Source of the DNA: Bacilli bacterium
GTDB taxonomy: Bacteria > Bacillota_I > Bacilli_A > RF39 > UBA660
NCBI GenBank assembly: GCA_017435465.1
Contig: JAFSEX010000006.1
Coordinates: 12,697 to 76,696, forward strand
Direction of reading: 5' to 3'
DNA length: 64,000 bases
The notes under the pieces are model-generated. The model ran no database searches. It was not told where the DNA came from and worked only from the letters and a program-made list of their open reading frames with translations. Below are positions 11,524 to 59,131 of the stretch, one piece after another; position 1 is the stretch's first letter; every line of letters begins with the position of its first letter. Made by a program: the position numbers and the translations under genes.

Positions 11524-12471
11524 ATGGAATACATATTATTTTTAATAAGTTGTATAATTATTATAAAAGCATCAGACATATTAGTAGACAGTGCATCTTC
11601 ACTTGCAATAAAACTAAAAGTTCCAAAATCATTAATAGCTCTTACCATAGTTGCATTTGGTACATGTGCTCCAGAAGTTGGAATATCATTTAGTAGTATT
11701 TTAAGACATAATTATAGTATGGCAATTGCAAATGTAGTAGGAAGTTGTATAGTAAATATTTTGTTTATTATTGGACTAGCATCTTTTTTACATCCAATAA
11801 AATTAAGACGTGCTACTACAAAAAGAGAATTACCGTTATTAGTTTTAATTACAGCTGTATTTTCATGTGTAATATTAGATGATATGTTAGTTATTAACAA
11901 ACAAAATATATTGTCTAGATCAGATGGAATAGTATTATTAATTTTATTTTTAATATTTATATTATATCTAATTGGTATGGCTAGAACTAATAAAAAAGAT
12001 GAAGAGGAAAATAAAGCAAAATATGGAACGATCAAATCAATATCCTATTTAATATTTAGTATTATATTAATTGTATTTAGTAGTGATTTACTAGTAGATA
12101 ATGCAGTTAAGATTGCTGAAAATTTAAGTGTTAGTCATAAAATAATTACTATGTTAATAGTAGTAATTGGAACGTCACTTCCTGAACTTGTTATGACAAT
12201 TAGAGCAAGTAAAAAAGAAGAATATGAACTTGCAATTGGAAATATAGTTGGTACTAATATATTCAATATATGTATTGTACTTGGACTTCCTGTTGTATTG
12301 TTTGGTGGAATTAAAGTAGTTGATTTTAATATAATTGATATGCTAACTGTAATGTTATCTTCAATAATTTTATATATTTTTTCAAAAAGTGAAAGAAAGA
12401 TATCTAGAATAGAAGGATTTTCAATGTTATTAATTTTTATAATTTATTATATATATGTTTTATTCATATAA
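11524..12471 (+). CDS. Ca2+/Na+ antiporter, CaCA (YrbG) family
   Basis: Two alpha-repeat regions (GTCAPE and GTSLPEL motifs), ~10 TM segments. Confidence 0.8.
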   Translation: MEYILFLISCIIIIKASDILVDSASSLAIKLKVPKSLIALTIVAFGTCAPEVGISFSSILRHNYSMAIANVVGSCIVNILFIIGLASFLHPIKLRRATTKRELPLLVLITAVFSCVILDDMLVINKQNILSRSDGIVLLILFLIFILYLIGMARTNKKDEEENKAKYGTIKSISYLIFSIILIVFSSDLLVDNAVKIAENLSVSHKIITMLIVVIGTSLPELVMTIRASKKEEYELAIGNIVGTNIFNICIVLGLPVVLFGGIKVVDFNIIDMLTVMLSSIILYIFSKSERKISRIEGFSMLLIFIIYYIYVLFI

Positions 12472-12488
12472 AAAAAATAACTATTTAG

Positions 12489-13235
12489 TTATCTTTTTTT
12501 ATATGAGTTCAATATTTGTAAATTTTTAATATATTCAATATCATTTTTAGACAAAGAAAATGAATTATTTATATTTTTCATGTTGAATTCATCTAAATTA
12601 TTTAATGATTCCAAATAATTTAATAGCTTAGTACTATCTTTTTCATTAGATAATTTAAAATTTAATACGCCATCTAATTCTTCAACATATTTTTCTTTAT
12701 AAAAATTCAATGTAGTTTCTTTATCGGTAATTAATAATTCAATATTATTTTCTCTATCACTAGCATTAATCATTTTTTGAAATATTTCAAAAACATCTTT
12801 ATATTCATTATTACATATTTGTCCACTACATAAAATCATTGAATTTTTAAGTAATTTAAAAAATATATTTCTTAAATTAACTTCGTCAAGTATAAAATAA
12901 TTTAGAATAAGTATATTTTCATTTTTAGATAACTCTATTGATATTTTATCACCAATCTTACTATTTAAAATTATTTCAGATACATTAGCAAACATATCAA
13001 ATTGTTGTTCATTTATTTCAAAGGTAATATATGATTGAGGATATAGAATTGAATCATTTTCATGCCCAATGCAACATGCTCTAGTCATAATATTATTTGA
13101 ATAACAATAATTTAACAAATCTTCTAAAGATTTGTTCCCCTCTGAAAATCTTAATGCAAATTTATTAGGATTTTTCATTATTTCCTTTTTTGAAAAACAT
13201 CTTTCTCTATTAATCATAAATATTACTCCAATCAT
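12489..13235 (-). CDS. Hypothetical protein
   Basis: Long ORF with no recognisable motifs; start codon uncertain. Confidence 0.45.
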   Translation of the reverse strand: MIGVIFMINRERCFSKKEIMKNPNKFALRFSEGNKSLEDLLNYCYSNNIMTRACCIGHENDSILYPQSYITFEINEQQFDMFANVSEIILNSKIGDKISIELSKNENILILNYFILDEVNLRNIFFKLLKNSMILCSGQICNNEYKDVFEIFQKMINASDRENNIELLITDKETTLNFYKEKYVEELDGVLNFKLSNEKDSTKLLNYLESLNNLDEFNMKNINNSFSLSKNDIEYIKNLQILNSYKKR

Positions 13236-13323
13236 TTATATTATATATTATTTAAAAAAAAATTACAAAAGAATAATATATATGTTAAAATAATAAATGT
13301 ATTAAGATGGAGTAGCATTAAGT

Positions 13324-13830
13324 ATGGTAGAAATAGTTAAACAAAATTTTAAAGAAAATAAGAAAATTTTTTGTGAAATGGAACGAATATTAAAAAATGA
13401 ATTAGAAAAAAGTGTAGTGATTTCTCATGTTGGTTCAACAGCTATACCTAAAATATATGGTAAAAATATTATAGATATTCTTGTTGGGGTAGAAAATACA
13501 AAAATATTTAAGGATGTATCAAGTAAATTAAAAGAATTGGGATATTATCCAAGTGATAAATCTAAAACAATTGAATATCAATTTTTTGCCTCAAAAAAAG
13601 AAGAAACTAAATCAGGAGATATTCATATACATCTTGGTATAATTAATACAAATAGATACAACGAATTTCTTTTGTTAAGAGACTATTTATTAGATAATCC
13701 TAATGTTGCAAAAGAATATTCTGATTATAAAAAGAAAATTTTAAAGTTAGAAAGTGCTGAAAGAAGTCAATATAGAAATATCAAAAGTATATATGTATCC
13801 AATTTAATAGAAAGAGCAAAAAATAGATAA
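13324..13830 (+). CDS. GrpB-family protein (UPF0157)
   Basis: HVGSTAIP...ILV ... HIHL pattern typical of the GrpB nucleotidyltransferase-like fold. Confidence 0.65.
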   Translation: MVEIVKQNFKENKKIFCEMERILKNELEKSVVISHVGSTAIPKIYGKNIIDILVGVENTKIFKDVSSKLKELGYYPSDKSKTIEYQFFASKKEETKSGDIHIHLGIINTNRYNEFLLLRDYLLDNPNVAKEYSDYKKKILKLESAERSQYRNIKSIYVSNLIERAKNR

Positions 13831-13835
13831 ATATA

Positions 13836-13864
13836 TTGACAAAAATAAAATAGTAGATTATATT
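13836..13864 (+). promoter_or_regulatory. sigmaA promoter TTGACA-17 nt-TATATT driving the leader/attenuator
   Basis: Consensus -35 at 13836-13841, 17-nt spacer, -10 at 13859-13864. Confidence 0.6.
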
Positions 13865-13885
13865 TATGGTGTAAATCAAAAGAAA

Positions 13886-14026
13886 GGAGTGTGATTAATA
13901 TGAAAAATATAATAAATAATTTACAAAATAAAATAATTAATAGTGTAGGATTAATCACAACTCCTAATTTTTAATAGTATCAAAATATTTCTTTTTGTGA
14001 TTAATCCTGCATTATGCAGGATTTTT
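13886..14026 (+). promoter_or_regulatory. Transcription attenuator with mutually exclusive helices A:B, B:C and C:D (terminator)
   Basis: A 13886-13899 pairs with B 13950-13964 (14 bp, one bulge). B' 13947-13959 pairs perfectly with C 13996-14008 (13 bp). Terminator stem 14003-14011/14015-14023 is followed by a T-tract. Confidence 0.6.
13900..13974 (+). CDS. 24-codon leader peptide MKNIINNLQNKIINSVGLITTPNF
   Basis: SD AAGGAG at 13884-13889; the ORF's 3' end covers attenuator segment B. Confidence 0.5.
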   Translation: MKNIINNLQNKIINSVGLITTPNF

Positions 14027-14049
14027 AATTTATGAAAAGAGGTATAAAA

Positions 14050-14805
14050 ATGATAATGAAATTAAATATTAATGATAGAGCAGCTCTTGCTATTAAAAAT
14101 GGTACAAAGAAAATTGAAATAAGAGCAAACAAAATAAATTCAAAATGTGATTACAGTATTTTAAAAGAAAATGATATTATAAAATTTAAAAGTGATAATT
14201 TAGATATATTTTATGTGAGAATTAAAGAAGTAAATCATTATAATACATTAGAAGAATTATTTACTTTAGAAGGAACAAGATATACAACATCATCTACAAA
14301 TGATTATAATGAAGCAATAAAAAGTATAAATAATTTAGATGGATATTATGAAAGTATTAAAATAAATGGAGTATATGCTATACACATAGAATATTTATAT
14401 AGTGAGAATACTGTTTGGGAAGAACTATATGAAAAAGCAAAAAAAGTAAGAAATCCAAGGGAAGTATCAGGAATGATAAGTGCAGGTAGTGTAGGCGCAG
14501 CTATACTTACTAAAAATCATAATATTTATACTGGCGTATGTATTGATACTGCATCAACACTAGGTATGTGTGCAGAAAGAAACGCTATTGCTAATATGAT
14601 AACTAATAATGAAAATGAAATAATAAAACTTGTATGTGTCGATTCTAAGGGTAACATAGGTTTTCCATGTGGTGCATGTAGAGAGTATTTAATGCAATTA
14701 GATAAGAATAGTAAAAATATTGAAATTTTAAAAGATTTAAAAACTAAAGAATTTATTAAATTAGAAGAATTAATTCCTAATTGGTGGGGTTACGATAGGG
14801 TATAA
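14050..14805 (+). CDS. ASCH domain fused to a cytidine/blasticidin-S deaminase-like zinc deaminase
   Basis: N-terminal ASCH-like KLNINDRAALAIKNGTKKIEIR. C-terminal CDA motifs VGAAILTK, CAERNAI, PCGACRE, EELIP. SD AAAAGAGG before ATG 14050. Confidence 0.7.
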   Translation: MIMKLNINDRAALAIKNGTKKIEIRANKINSKCDYSILKENDIIKFKSDNLDIFYVRIKEVNHYNTLEELFTLEGTRYTTSSTNDYNEAIKSINNLDGYYESIKINGVYAIHIEYLYSENTVWEELYEKAKKVRNPREVSGMISAGSVGAAILTKNHNIYTGVCIDTASTLGMCAERNAIANMITNNENEIIKLVCVDSKGNIGFPCGACREYLMQLDKNSKNIEILKDLKTKEFIKLEELIPNWWGYDRV

Positions 14806-14816
14806 GGAGAAGTGTT

Positions 14817-15425
14817 ATGAATTTTATAGGAAGTAAAACAATAGAAACAGAAAGATTAATATTAAAAAGTTCTAAAATGGCAGAACAAAAAAAATTGTAT
14901 GAAATTTTAATGAATCCAGAAGTAAATAAATGGTATTTAACATCCGGTAAGAAACATGCAAATGATTCTAACTATTGGACTTGGGAAATTCAAGAAAAAT
15001 TTTACAAATCAAAAGTTGATAAAGCAAATAATTCTGATGTTTTTGGTTGGAGTATATTTTTAAAATCTGAATATTCAAATAGTAATACTGAAGAAATAAT
15101 TGGGCAAGTAACTGCACAAGAAAATGGTAGTGATTTAACTATTCGTGATGTTGGATGGTATATAGATCCTAAATACCAAGGTATGGGATATGCAACTGAA
15201 GCGGCTAAGGCTATGATTAAATATATGTTTGAATTGGTTGAGATTGAAAAAATAATATCAGGAGCTGTTAAAGATAATATTGGTTCATGTAAAATTTTTG
15301 AAAAATTAGGATTTATCAAAACAGGTGAAATAACACATGAATCTAAATATACCTTTTATGATGGAACACTTACATCTTCTAAATATGAAATGGATAAAAA
15401 ATTATATTTAAAAAAATGGAAATAA
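14817..15425 (+). CDS. GNAT-family N-acetyltransferase (RimJ/RimL-like)
   Basis: ETERLILK N-terminus and QGMGYATEAAKAMIKY acetyl-CoA binding motif. Confidence 0.75.
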   Translation: MNFIGSKTIETERLILKSSKMAEQKKLYEILMNPEVNKWYLTSGKKHANDSNYWTWEIQEKFYKSKVDKANNSDVFGWSIFLKSEYSNSNTEEIIGQVTAQENGSDLTIRDVGWYIDPKYQGMGYATEAAKAMIKYMFELVEIEKIISGAVKDNIGSCKIFEKLGFIKTGEITHESKYTFYDGTLTSSKYEMDKKLYLKKWK

Positions 15426-15534
15426 ATGATAACTGGAATAAAAAAAATAAAGAACGATTAAATTTTTATTATTTTAATTGTTCTTTATGATATACTTAAT
15501 TAGTAATGAAAATATAAAATAAGGAGGGTATATT

Positions 15535-16164
15535 TTGAATACAGTCATTTATTTAATTAGACATTCAGAACCATTCAAAGTACATAGAGGTATAACTAAT
15601 ACAAATGAATCAATACTAATGGAAAATGAAAAATCACCTTTAAGTATTGATGGCGAAAAATTAGCAGAAAAAATGGCATTGCTAGAAGAATTTAAAAATT
15701 TGGATATTGTTTACTCATCAAATTATGTAAGAGCAATGTCGACCGCAAAATATTTTTCAAGTGTTAATAATTTAAAAGTTAATATTGATGATAGATTTAA
15801 TGAAAGAGTTCATGGTATTAATAGTTGGAATGAATTGCCTAATGATTTTGAAATGAAACAATTTGAAGATGAAGATTACAAGATAGGTTTTGGTGAATCT
15901 CAAAAGGAAGTTCGAAATCGTATGTATGAATCATTAATAGAAGTTATAAATAAAAATCATGGTAAAAAAATTGCAATAATATCTCACTCAACTGCTATTG
16001 CATTTTTATTAAAAAATTGGTGTAAAGTTTATTATAATAAAGCATATACATTTGAAAATAAAATTTTCTTTGATGGTAAATGGAAATATTTAGAAACATT
16101 TAAACTAATATTTAACGAAAATAATGAGTTAGTAAATATCATAAATATTAATTTAAATAATTGA
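15535..16164 (+). CDS. Histidine phosphatase (phosphoglycerate mutase-like) family protein
   Basis: IYLIRHSE catalytic RH motif and a downstream SHS motif; TTG start after AAGGAGGG. Confidence 0.7.
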   Translation: MNTVIYLIRHSEPFKVHRGITNTNESILMENEKSPLSIDGEKLAEKMALLEEFKNLDIVYSSNYVRAMSTAKYFSSVNNLKVNIDDRFNERVHGINSWNELPNDFEMKQFEDEDYKIGFGESQKEVRNRMYESLIEVINKNHGKKIAIISHSTAIAFLLKNWCKVYYNKAYTFENKIFFDGKWKYLETFKLIFNENNELVNIININLNN

Positions 16165-16193
16165 GTATATAGTAAATACTATATGCTTTTTTT
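16164..16193 (+). terminator. Intrinsic terminator
   Basis: AGTATATAGTA/TACTATATGCT stem followed by T6. Confidence 0.65.
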
Positions 16194-16222
16194 AATTATT
16201 AGTTTTTTTTGCATATAATTAA

Positions 16223-17866
16223 ATGGGTGATAATATGTTTCATAAGCAAATAGATAAAAAAATAAAAATAGTTTTAATAATAATATTTTTTCTATTCATT
16301 GTAATCATATGTAAAGTAGGATACATACAATTATTTCAATATAAAAAACTTAATAAACTGGCAAGTGATTTATGGAGTAGAAATCTACCAATTGAAGCTA
16401 ATAGGGGTAAAATATATGATAGAAATGGAGTAGTACTTGCAGATAATCTTACAACAACTTCATTAGTATTAATTCCAAATCAAATAAAGGATAAAGATAG
16501 AGTTAGCCAAGATTTAGCAAATATTTTAGGAGTTACTAAAGAAGAAATGGATAAGCATGTTAAAAAAAGTACATCTATTGAAAGAGTACATCCTGAAGGT
16601 AGAAGATTATCTTATGAAATTGCAGATAAAATAAATAGTTTAAATTATGATGGAGTATATTTGGTTAAAGAATCTAAAAGATTTTATCCAAATCAAAGTT
16701 ATTTATCACACGTTCTTGGTTTTGTTGGAATAGATAATCAAGGTCTTAGCGGACTTGAATTAGAATATGACGAATATTTAAAAGGTGAGAGTGGCGCGAT
16801 AAAATATTTTTCAGATGCAAAAGGTAATAGACTTGAGATGTCTGAAGTATATCAAAAACCACAAGATGGAATGAATATGATGCTTACTATTGATTATAAT
16901 ATACAAACTTCAATTGAAAGAGAACTTGATAATGTAGTTGAAAAATATAATCCCGAACAAGCATTAGTACTTGCAATGAATCCAAATACGGGAGAAATTT
17001 TAGGTATGAGTTCTAGACCTACTTTTGATCCTAATAATTATCAAAATTATTCTCTAGAAGAAACAAGTAGAAACTTACCAATTTGGGCAACATATGAACC
17101 GGGTTCAACATTTAAAATTATTACTCTTGCTAGTGCATTAAATGAAGGTAAAGTAGATTTAAAAGAAGAACACTTTCATGATGGTGGGAGTGTAAATGTT
17201 GAAGGAGCTAGAATAAAATGCTGGAAAGCAGGAGGACATGGTTCTCAAACATTTATGCAGGTTGTTCAAAATTCTTGCAACCCCGGTTTTGTTGAACTTG
17301 GTCAAAGACTTGGAAAAGATACACTTTTTGGTTATATAAATAAATTTGGTTTTGGTAAAAAAACTGGAGTAGATTTAAATGGTGAATCAACAGGAATTAT
17401 GTTTCCGATGGATAGAGTAGGTCCTGTTGAACTTGCTACTACTGCATTTGGCCAAGGTGTGTCAGTAACTCCAATACAACAAGTGGTTGCAGTTAGTGCA
17501 GCAATAAATGGTGGTAAATTAGTAACTCCTTATATTGTTAAAGGTTTTATGGAACCCGAAACAAATACTATTATTGAAGAACGTACTCCACAAATTAAAA
17601 GTGAAGTAATTACTGAAGAAACAAGTGCTTTAGTTAGGGAAGCTTTAGAAAATGTAGTATCCCTTGGAACTGGTAGAAATGCATATATAGATGGATATAG
17701 AGTGGGTGGTAAAACAGGTACTGCACAAAAAGTTCAAAATGGAAGATATTTAGTTGGCAACTATATAGTTTCTTTTATAAGTTTTTTACCTGCTGATGAT
17801 CCTGAAATTGTTTTATATGTTGCGGTTGATAATCCAAAAGGTGTTACTCAATATGGGGGTACTGTA
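16223..17866 (+). CDS. spoVD: 5' segment of split class-B penicillin-binding protein (SpoVD-like): PBP dimerisation and transpeptidase domains
   Basis: Motifs STFK, SCN, KTGTAQ. Homology ends at ...QYGGTV (17866). The observed ORF reads on into element DNA for 24 more codons to the stop at 17941. The start may be ATG 16235. Confidence 0.8.
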
Positions 17867-17968
17867 CACGCTCTCTTAAGTGAAAACAAAGATAAACCCT
17901 TATTTTATAAGGGATTAAGGCATATACTGAAACGTTTTTAATATACAAAATTGAAAGGTTGAGGTAAG

Positions 17969-32123: not shown

Positions 32124-32200
32124 GGGGAATTAGCTCAGTTGGCTAGAGCACCACGCTTGCACCGTGGGGGTCAAGGGTTCGAGTCCCTTATTCTCCACCA
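32124..32200 (+). tRNA. tRNA-Ala (anticodon TGC), CCA encoded
   Basis: GGGGAAT/ATTCTCC acceptor with the G3:U70 identity pair; anticodon loop CTTGCAC; T-arm GGTTCGAGTCC. Confidence 0.9.
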
Positions 32201-58965: not shown

Positions 58966-59042
58966 GGACCCTTAGCTCAGTTGGTTAGAGCTATCGGCTC
59001 ATAACCGATCGGTCGTAGGTTCGAGTCCTACAGGGTCCACCA
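58966..59042 (+). tRNA. tRNA with CAT anticodon; sequence type resembles tRNA-Ile2 (lysidine-modified) rather than initiator or elongator Met
   Basis: GGACCCT/AGGGTCC acceptor, anticodon loop CTCATAA, T-arm GGTTCGAGTCC. The Ile2 assignment rests on recalled similarity to the Bacillus tRNA-Ile(CAU). Confidence 0.85.
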
Positions 59043-59046
59043 CTTT

Positions 59047-59131
59047 GCGGATGTGGCGGAATTGGCAGACGCACTAGACTTAGGATCTAGCGGAGCAATC
59101 CATGGGGGTTCAAGTCCCTTCATCCGCACCA
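59047..59131 (+). tRNA. tRNA-Leu (anticodon TAG), class II
   Basis: GCGGATG/CATCCGC acceptor, anticodon stem CTAGA/TCTAG with loop CTTAGGA, long variable arm. Confidence 0.9.

Follow-up and report, generated by a model that had tools for sequence, protein, structure and literature searches.

A probable ribosome-dependent leader-peptide attenuator upstream of an ASCH-deaminase operon in uncultured gut Bacilli

In Bacillus subtilis, vmlR is induced when lincomycin or retapamulin arrests the initiating ribosome on an upstream open reading frame (uORF) that lies inside an anti-antiterminator, and a hairpin sequestering the Shine-Dalgarno (SD) sequence serves as a second layer of control (PMC9226507). 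The leaders of lmo0919/hflXr in Listeria are of the vmlR type (PMC6310831). Here we describe the leader preceding an ASCH-deaminase gene in a 64,000-nucleotide (nt) stretch of contig JAFSEX010000006.1 from a Bacilli bacterium. This whole stretch is called the window, and all positions refer to it unless another locus is named. Judged by analogy, the vmlR leader appears to be the closest known system. With a probability of roughly 0.6, the element is a ribosome-dependent leader-peptide attenuator that controls the ASCH and deaminase operon and is on when a ribosome is held at the leader start. The parts of this reading differ in strength: the existence of a terminator/antiterminator/anti-antiterminator switch is very probable, its dependence on the ribosome is likely, and the modelling leans towards a decisive stall close to the start codon.

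The RNA segments of the switch are the following.

13885 to 13899, forward strand: segment A, the 5' strand of the anti-antiterminator, spanning the leader SD and the spacer between SD and AUG.
13950 to 13965, forward strand: segment B, the 3' strand of the anti-antiterminator, AUUAAUCACAACUCCU, in codons 17-22 of the leader open reading frame (ORF) and resembling an anti-SD sequence.
13940 to 13959, forward strand: segment B', the 5' strand of the antiterminator, pairing over 20 base pairs (bp) with C.
13996 to 14015, forward strand: segment C, the 3' strand of the antiterminator, overlapping the 5' arm of the terminator, its loop and the first base of its 3' arm.
14003 to 14031, forward strand: intrinsic terminator (C:D), a 9-bp stem (14003-11/14015-23) with the loop UUA, followed by UUUAAUUU.
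13870 to 13876, forward strand: 5' arm of helix P0, UGUAAAU, at or beside the 5' end of the transcript.
13919 to 13925, forward strand: 3' arm of helix P0, AUUUACA, in codons 7-9 (N-L-Q).

Segments A and B form a helix of 15 bp with one bulged A (13885-99 with 13950-65), and the antiterminator B':C comprises 20 bp including two G.U pairs (13940-59 with 13996-14015). An earlier interpretation made from the DNA letters alone, here called the sequence-only reading, had located both helices and the bulge correctly and had underestimated their lengths, giving 14 bp for A:B and 13 perfect bp for B':C; all 13 of the latter match, within the longer helix. It had also described C as overlapping the 5' arm of a 9-bp terminator hairpin followed by a T tract, exactly as found here. 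The pairings exclude one another, as B':C and the terminator share 14003-15, and A:B and B' share 13950-59. The same pairings were recovered by an unguided repeat search, together with a 10-nt direct repeat, TGTGATTAAT, common to A and C. Folding of the region, proposed in the sequence-only reading as a check, gave a minimum free energy (MFE) structure consisting of A:B and the terminator, which beats all 200 shuffles (z -3.64); extending the fold to 14080 gives z -5.3. The hairpin at 14003-23 with its T tract is the sole terminator-like site in 3.4 kb (13000-16400), where 0.3 would be expected.

Homologous loci were fetched via the relatives of the downstream protein, of which 2132, mostly of 251 amino acids (aa), are present in the database. 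A homologous leader was found in 40 genome loci, and a search with the A/B pattern gave 72 further metagenome loci, bringing the total to more than 110. The hosts are uncultured, very AT-rich gut Bacilli, with record names including 'Clostridium sp. CAG:914', 'Firmicutes bacterium CAG:460' and Candidatus Onthocola; individual loci are designated L004, L009 and so on. The nearest relative of the window protein shares 94% identity with it and comes from two JGI metagenomes; the database look-up returned no exact record of the window protein itself.

Covariation was assessed on 42 distinct leaders, aligned with MAFFT without any structural information. The off-state helices (P0, A:B and C:D) are 93.1% paired, compared with 36-46% when the partners are slid, and ten of their pairs are changed on both sides, a number that 0 of 500 shuffles reached. 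Taken singly, A:B is 94% paired, with G.U and compensatory changes, and the terminator is 93% paired, with 6 of its 9 pairs changed on both sides. In the antiterminator 14 pairs are changed on both sides against 6.4 in shuffles (0/500), and its core columns are 83-100% paired. RNAalifold, supplied with no structure, predicted the A:B core and the terminator. The strands B', C and D co-vary, reading AGGAUU / AAUCCU / AGGAUU in the window, AGAAUU / AAUUCU / AGAAUU in the majority of leaders and GGGUU.. / AACUCUCU / AGAGAGUU in L104; L141 and L115 differ again. The sequence-only reading had called the element a ribosome-mediated attenuation switch and had named covariation in related leaders as a way of checking it. 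All helices show compensatory changes among the homologous leaders, and both the mutually exclusive pairing segments and the leader ORF are conserved at these loci.

Helix P0 (13870-76 with 13919-25) was absent from the sequence-only reading. In the 42 leaders 90-93% of its cells are paired, and compensatory variants occur as GTAAAC:GTTTAC (L040), GTAACA:TGTTAC (L055) and GTAATT:AATTAC (L060/L079), with G.U pairs in GTAAGT types. P0 crosses A:B; it may stabilise the 5' end of the transcript as a terminal stem, or belong to an off state with a pseudoknot.

A further helix absent from the sequence-only reading, helix F, encloses the terminator hairpin and involves the SD of the gene that follows.

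13985 to 14000, forward strand: 5' strand of helix F, a pyrimidine-rich spacer just 5' of C and overlapping it, complementary to the ribosome-binding site (RBS) of the deaminase gene.
14030 to 14045, forward strand: 3' strand of helix F, containing the deaminase SD AAGAGG (14037-42).

This helix is part of the MFE structure of the read-through RNA, and in the full-length RNA at equilibrium the unpaired probability of the deaminase SD is 0.00-0.06. The duplex has an energy of -13.5 kcal/mol (z -3.9), which was equalled by 1 of 1000 shuffles. For 45 distinct pairs of spacer and RBS from homologues the z of the duplex averages -1.72, and the two strands covary by class (AAUAUUCUUUU:AGGAGGAUAUU; UUCUAUCUUUA:AAAGGUAGG; GUUGUCCUG:AGGAGAACAG). 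Helix F is kept in most classes and is weak or absent where other genes follow the leader (L104, L115, L141, L102). Its pairing accounts for the conservation of the spacer, which would otherwise be puzzling. Another candidate, helix E (AAAAGAAA at 13878-85 with UUUCUUUU at 13988-95), was weak (mean z -1.0) and was dropped in favour of helix F; in the closest relative it is broken by a change of AAAGAAA to AACGAAA.

Transcription and translation of the leader involve three features.

13836 to 13864, forward strand: promoter, with -35 TTGACA at 13836-41, a 17-nt spacer and -10 TATATT at 13859-64.
13881 to 13889, forward strand: leader SD, AGAAAGGAG, followed after 10 nt by the ATG at 13900.
13900 to 13974, forward strand: leader ORF, MKNIINNLQNKIINSVGLITTPNF, from ATG 13900 to TAA 13972-74, 24 codons plus stop.

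The promoter matches the consensus at 11 of 12 positions and is the top promoter-like site within 13000-16400; the probable transcription start is near G13871. Among 58 distinct upstream regions of homologues, 50 have a TATATT/TATAAT hexamer whose end lies exactly 6 nt 5' of GTAAAT, and 47 have TTTACA, TTGACA or TTGACT 17 nt 5' of the -10 hexamer. The TTGACA-17-TATATT promoter, the strong SD and the 24-codon leader ORF of the sequence-only reading are thus all in place. Within the leader SD, GAAAGGAG is near-invariant, with 7 of 8 columns unchanged across the 42 leaders. The SD AGAAAGGAG is a 9-nt complement of the conserved 3' end of 16S rRNA, and AGAAAGGAG-U-GUGAU comes close to the full complement of that end, GAUCACCUCCUUUCU. 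On that reading, B (AUCAC-AA-CUCCU) would mimic an anti-SD sequence inside the leader, in competition with the ribosome for A.

The extraction of leaders required an ATG 5-12 nt after GGAG, and 77 distinct leaders were retained. In all 77 the ATG is in fact 9-12 nt after GGAG and lies outside every helix; the only leader seen without an ATG is that of L043. The distance from the ATG to B takes ten values between 27 and 54 nt. Eight of these keep UUA-AUC-AC as Leu-Ile-Thr, the remaining two correspond to the +1 frame, and none to the frame that would place a UAA inside B. The ORF always passes through B and stops 7-31 nt later, nearly always before C (L040 is the exception), and the homologous uORFs have 15-26 codons. 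In the closest relative there are eight leader substitutions, all in the unpaired part of the ORF and most of them amino-acid-changing, and the ORF stays open; the sole change in a helix converts A-U to G.U. With this SD/ATG spacing and frame bias, the leader ORF behaves as a translated ORF, and we infer from the sequence pattern that it is one. An open frame of the right extent appears to be under selection, and the peptide sequence does not appear to be, beyond what RNA pairing demands.

Three loci depart from this pattern. In L004 (2096-2155) a deletion variant runs from the ATG to ...AATAATGCAGAATT and then directly into the T tract and the deaminase RBS, without the terminator hairpin; the covariance model matches it at model positions 37-74 only. 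Recombination between the direct repeats of B' and D (TGCAGAATT) seems to have excised B, the spacer and C, and this copy should be constitutive. The leader of L043 (2791-2944) is degraded, with no ATG after the SD, a mutated terminator and a score of 43 bits as against 80-160 for the others. Its deaminase copy has diverged as well, matching from residue 16 only with 66% identity; this is possibly a decaying locus. In L132 (5611-5732) the leader is intact to B and continues into unrelated, GC-richer sequence (...CCTTTACCTCAGACGGGGTTTCTCTGCG...), so that the leader ORF grows to 42 codons; an insertion or a chimeric assembly may be the cause.

Searches for known relatives of the leader were negative. 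In Rfam 15 no family matched at the gathering score, and none that was relevant at E up to 10; the best local matches scored 14-23 bits with cut-offs of 45-100. A covariance model (R1), run over the window and 152 loci, gave neither a second copy in the window nor convincing additional ones elsewhere, and no description of this leader was found in the literature. The only Rfam matches in the window are four tRNA genes (477-560 on the reverse strand, 32124-32197, and 58966-59128 on the forward strand).

These results bear on a switch made of RNA only, in which the ORF would be incidental and the leader would bind a metabolite, protein or tRNA like a riboswitch, or work through UTP/CTP-sensitive pausing of the polymerase, as pyrBI does. 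The predicted activity of the regulated enzyme on pyrimidines, the presence of a T-rich tract 5' of C and the poor conservation of the peptide outside the paired regions would all suit such a switch. Nevertheless, we regard it as the least probable of the explanations. No Rfam family matches, even at the permissive threshold given above, and on our reading of the alignment most conserved columns belong to one of the four helices, to helix F, to the SD or to the ATG, so that little resembling a ligand pocket is left. The invariant SD/ATG spacing and the frame bias would go unexplained. Furthermore, the leader ORF of the window stops before C, which makes a pyrBI-style block of the terminator by the ribosome impossible there, and the same leader is found before non-pyrimidine genes.

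The effect of ribosome position was modelled by folding an RNA that ends with the terminator, while a mask of 27 nt (an assumed footprint of -12 to +14) was moved along the leader one P-site codon at a time. With the P site of the window leader at codons 1, 2, 3 and 4, the probability of the antiterminator is 1.0, 0.98, 0.70 and 0.63, respectively. For codons 5-24 and without a ribosome it is at most 0.01, and the terminator probability for codons 5-24 is 0.98-0.99. The early-codon antiterminator window was also seen in 9 of 12 other leaders tested. The principle stated in the sequence-only reading, that ribosome position chooses the fold, is thus borne out in silico; its decisive site is displaced, from the last codons of the ORF to codons 1-4. 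The geometry argues for the same site. Since A is the leader's own RBS, only a ribosome at or near the start masks it. This is also the one arrangement that every variant shares, as A invariably adjoins the ATG and the distance from there to B differs by a factor of two.

The attenuator would then have three states. Without a ribosome, A would pair with B, leaving C free to form the terminator with D, and transcription would end at about 14025-30 (off). During normal translation, the ribosome would cover B/B' as C emerges and reach the stop a few codons on, and the terminator would form again (off). This second state would explain why the ORF has to span B in spite of a very strong SD that would keep A occupied. 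With a ribosome held on the start codon or the first three to four codons, A would be masked and B not yet reached, and the 20-bp B':C helix would form and block the terminator (on). Helix F would add a second layer, as it buries the deaminase SD in the terminator fold and transcripts that leak through would be poorly translated. The antiterminator uses 13996-14000 and topologically crosses the rest of F, and it should in this way free the deaminase SD. In this scheme the sequence elements, with their conservation and covariation, and the folding preference under the masks are shown, and we infer the stall position in vivo, the inducer and the relief of helix F.

Several observations weigh against this reading of the leader. 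The masked folds are equilibrium calculations without pseudoknots. In L104 and L141 the terminator prevails at every ribosome position, and in leaders of the L034 type the antiterminator is already the MFE structure without a ribosome. The majority-type leader has a second antiterminator window at P-site codons 16-20. In the full-length RNA at equilibrium, the terminator with helix F is favoured even with a start-bound ribosome (antiterminator probability 0.07), so that induction and relief of F would have to be kinetic. The NusG-type pause motif TTNTTT occurs between B and C in 50 of 60 spacers, compared with 35.8 expected from shuffles, an excess barely above chance and not convincing in such T-rich stretches; the tract is better explained as the anti-SD strand of helix F. 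Finally, none of the regulated and neighbouring enzymes reaches the cut-off of a curated resistance family, which leaves the link to antibiotics circumstantial.

The second antiterminator window of the majority type could indicate that the same switch is operated by a late stall, around the conserved ...LITTPN codons over B, in the drug- and nascent-peptide-dependent manner of erm/cat leaders. In line with this, an (E/G/D)-L-I-T motif is in frame in 69 of the 77 distinct leaders. We consider a late stall improbable for several reasons. In the window the terminator dominates from codon 5 to codon 24, as given above; the residues after LIT vary (TTPN, LCFI, ISPS, LSLT, SLL, NS*, VCD*), and the stop codon lies anywhere from 7 to 31 nt past the B core. 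LIT is encoded by UUAAUCAC, which is obliged to pair with A, and this obligation accounts for its conservation. In eight leaders the frame over these nucleotides is a different one (..RFNH..).

A stall at the start of the ORF could also be caused by an uncharged tRNA, and the sequence-only reading had offered sensing of Asn, Ile or Lys supply as one possibility. The window leader is indeed rich in Asn (25%) and Ile (21%) relative to the long ORFs of the window (9% and 11%), most leaders begin with MKN, and codons 2-4 (K, N, I/L) are those at which a stall would mask A. Such amino-acid attenuation is very unlikely all the same. There is no tandem or conserved run of regulatory codons, and the Asn and Ile positions are not conserved, the 94%-identical relative having MKKTISNLQNKKIN. 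Other classes begin with MQN, MNR, MVR, MYM, MFK or MKL. The composition of the leader needs no selection for these residues, as the G+C content of the window is 23.9% and the unpaired part of the leader ORF, with 91% A+T, yields AAT, ATA and AAA by itself. The regulated genes are without a link to the supply of Asn, Ile or Lys. This suggestion of the sequence-only reading is therefore not retained, and a start-held ribosome remains the preferred explanation.

The genes placed under the control of the leader begin with the following two.

14050 to 14805, forward strand: ASCH-deaminase gene, 251 aa, with an ASCH domain at residues ~7-115 and a tetrameric-type cytidine-deaminase-fold domain at ~127-250 (PF04266, PF00383).
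14817 to 15425, forward strand: GNAT acetyltransferase gene (Acetyltransf_3), 12 nt after the deaminase stop.

The ATG at 14050 is the most likely start of the deaminase gene, as it gives a protein of 251 aa like the homologues. Its deaminase domain contains an invariant CAE...PCGAC zinc motif. In comparisons with the Protein Data Bank, cytidine deaminases match with E-values from 1e-10 (1jtk) to 2e-6, and blasticidin-S deaminases, to which the sequence-only reading had likened the domain, match less well (5e-5 for 3oj6, 2.5e-4 for 1wn5, up to 6e-4). Both NCBIfam models stay below their cut-offs (NF004064, 73.0 with a cut-off of 74; TIGR01354, 68.2 with a cut-off of 113.65), and in NCBI records the stand-alone relatives carry the name cytidine deaminase. 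Where the B. subtilis cytidine deaminase has the ribose-contacting Asn and Glu of 'CNIENAAY', the window protein has Cys and Asp in the alignment.

The N-terminal ASCH domain had been overlooked in the sequence-only reading and scores 21.6 bits in Pfam (cut-off 21.2). It is nearest to Pyrococcus PF0455/PH0355 (1s04; profile match E 1.8e-6, with kkiEgR aligned to krvEiR), and in its octapeptide G-x-K-x-x-E-x-R (GTKKIEIR) the residues K20, E23 and R25 are invariant. ASCH proteins of the 'GKER' type, to which TthASCH and EOLA1 belong, deacetylate N4-acetylcytidine (bioRxiv 10.64898/2026.02.27.708502; YqfB, PMC6972931). With both the fold of these amidohydrolases and their octapeptide, in which a Lys and a Glu(/Thr) are catalytic and accompanied by an Arg, the domain is predicted to belong to them. 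The protein may therefore be a fusion of an N4-acyl-cytosine amidohydrolase and a cytosine deaminase, suggesting two sequential steps on one substrate. It could act in the salvage of N4-acetylcytidine or, more speculatively, in the inactivation of cytosine-nucleoside antibiotics. No description of an ASCH-deaminase fusion was found in the literature.

The GNAT gene is probably co-transcribed with the deaminase gene. The same GNAT is found downstream on the same strand in 36 homologous loci, either directly or after inserted genes, and no terminator-like site was detected after the deaminase gene (14806-16400). Further genes on the same strand encode a histidine phosphatase (15535-16164) and a penicillin-binding-protein-like ORF (16223-17941), and the transcription unit may extend beyond two genes. 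Which genes separate the deaminase from the conserved GNAT depends on the genome (L009, 3769-6169; L051, 3166-5846); their products include a YfcE phosphodiesterase, a P-loop kinase, additional GNATs, a second small ASCH-like protein and, with 486 aa, a GNAT-transglutaminase-ASCH fusion. This interval looks like a shuffled cassette of small enzymes. On the other side of the leader, the window contains a Na/Ca exchanger gene (11524-12471), a 248-aa ORF on the reverse strand without a Pfam match (12489-13235) and a GrpB gene (13324-13830), whose place 5' of the leader is taken by a NUDIX gene in the closest relative (L153).

In most loci the leader precedes an ASCH-deaminase gene, and it is also found before stand-alone deaminases, two different GNATs, a fusion of an APH-family kinase with a transglutaminase-like domain, a 210-aa protein that belongs to no known family, an RsgA GTPase and a DUF553/transglutaminase-like protein. 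In L021 (197-1632), a 184-aa DUF553/transglutaminase-like gene and a GNAT fragment are inserted between the leader and the ASCH-deaminase gene; the inserted domain is also fused to the APH kinase behind the leader in L141, and to GNAT and ASCH in L051. The leaders of stand-alone deaminases (L055, L057, L060, L079, L083, L117 and others) keep P0, A, B and C and have a short hairpin at the SD/start of the gene in place of the terminator; the eight leaders that read B in the other frame precede stand-alone deaminases. These terminator-less leaders would be a translational-attenuation version of the switch. When L055, L060, L079, L083 and L117 were modelled, SD accessibility showed no consistent response to the ribosome masks, and in L055 the B:C hairpin is already the MFE structure.

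The occurrence of one leader before unrelated enzymes speaks for a signal that reports on translation and not on a single metabolite. What most likely triggers the switch in nature is an arrest of initiating or early-elongating ribosomes, above all by inhibitors acting from the first peptide bond. That antibiotics are the natural inducer is possible, with odds that we place a little below even. The same occupancy mechanism could report the general status of translation, such as slowdown in stationary phase, defects of ribosome assembly, (p)ppGpp or cold. The unrelated functions behind the leader, among them the ribosome-assembly GTPase RsgA, and the lack of a match between any regulated gene and a curated resistance family would fit such a signal. 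Moreover, vmlR itself is also induced by ribosome assembly defects (PMC9226507), and deacetylation of N4-acetylcytidine from RNA turnover by the ASCH class is a housekeeping or salvage function (PMC6972931; bioRxiv 10.64898/2026.02.27.708502). On the other hand, the sequence does not separate this possibility from the antibiotic reading, and the deaminase, the GNATs and the APH-like kinase resemble enzymes that modify small molecules. As a specific proposal we hold a translation-status signal to be unlikely, and at the same time take a non-antibiotic cause of initiation arrest as a serious alternative.

The leader may mark a hitherto unrecognised, inducible drug-response regulon of uncultured gut Bacilli, with a portable sensor of start-arrested ribosomes that would switch on several small-molecule-modifying enzymes. 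The ASCH-deaminase would then be a two-step inactivator of cytosine-nucleoside peptidyl-transferase inhibitors, removing an N4-acyl group (amicetin-type compounds) and subsequently deaminating the cytosine, with which these drugs mimic the CCA end of tRNA, as blasticidin-S deaminase does. We offer this as a long shot; if true, it would represent a new class of resistance enzyme with a matched sensor.

Whatever the signal, the leader adds a well-supported family of cis-regulatory RNA for abundant uncultured gut Bacilli, in which regulation is almost undescribed. With one sensor connected to two kinds of output, a terminator or an SD hairpin, and to a number of unrelated genes, it would clearly illustrate how attenuators evolve by modules. 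In addition, the leader flags the ASCH-deaminase and the neighbouring GNAT and kinase cassettes as genes wanted when translation initiation is blocked, and it provides a lead on enzyme function. These enzymes, anonymous so far, may form a reservoir in the gut of drug-modifying activities that can be induced, or may serve to salvage N4-acetylcytidine.

Compared with vmlR, the leader shares a promoter-proximal uORF embedded in the anti-antiterminator, with an antiterminator and a terminator that are mutually exclusive. Segment A reaches position -1 of the leader ATG, and the codon-1 mask gives an antiterminator probability of 1.0. Both systems have a separate structure sequestering the SD of the regulated gene, which is helix F here, and both would be induced by a ribosome held at the uORF start, in our case according to modelling only. 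They differ in that no sequence relationship was found, and in that the vmlR uORF is a tripeptide, whereas the uORFs here have 15-26 codons and always extend through the 3' strand of the anti-antiterminator, whose 5' strand is here the very strong SD of the leader itself. A NusG pause element TTNTTT is not clearly recognisable, and the output consists of small-molecule-modifying enzymes instead of an ABCF factor.

With ermC/cat-86, ermK, tlrB (yxjB, PMC6851288), msrD and bmrCD (PMC4191407), the leader has in common a short ORF on which a stalled ribosome redirects RNA folding. The combination of transcriptional and translational layers resembles tlrB, and L055, L079, L083 and L117, with their SD/start hairpin in place of the terminator, resemble erm/cat. 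The window leader does have a terminator and so does not work by SD sequestration alone. Furthermore, the members of this group stall at specific internal peptide motifs (e.g. RYR in TlrB), whereas here there is no peptide motif beyond the demands of RNA pairing, and the modelled inducing position is the start codon region. The erm/cat-type antibiotic stalling put forward in the sequence-only reading is therefore an approximate likeness, the closest logic being that of vmlR with its arrest at initiation. Blasticidin-S deaminase, for its part, shares the zinc motif of the cytidine deaminase fold, and the window protein is more distant from it than from cytidine deaminase.

The trp, his and phe attenuators of E. 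coli follow the same four-segment logic (1:2, 2:3, 3:4), with different outcomes for no, full and stalled translation. Here, however, an RBS takes the place of a series of regulatory codons as segment 1, tandem cognate codons are lacking, and the Rfam leader models fail (Phe_leader, 14.9 bits with a cut-off of 55). The class of mechanism is thus known from trp, erm/cat, tlrB, bmrCD, msrD and vmlR; the leader family itself is uncurated, and no prior description of it was found. What sets it apart from these systems is a sensor strand that is the leader's own strong RBS, a long uORF obliged to cover the partner strand, and outputs that are interchangeable.

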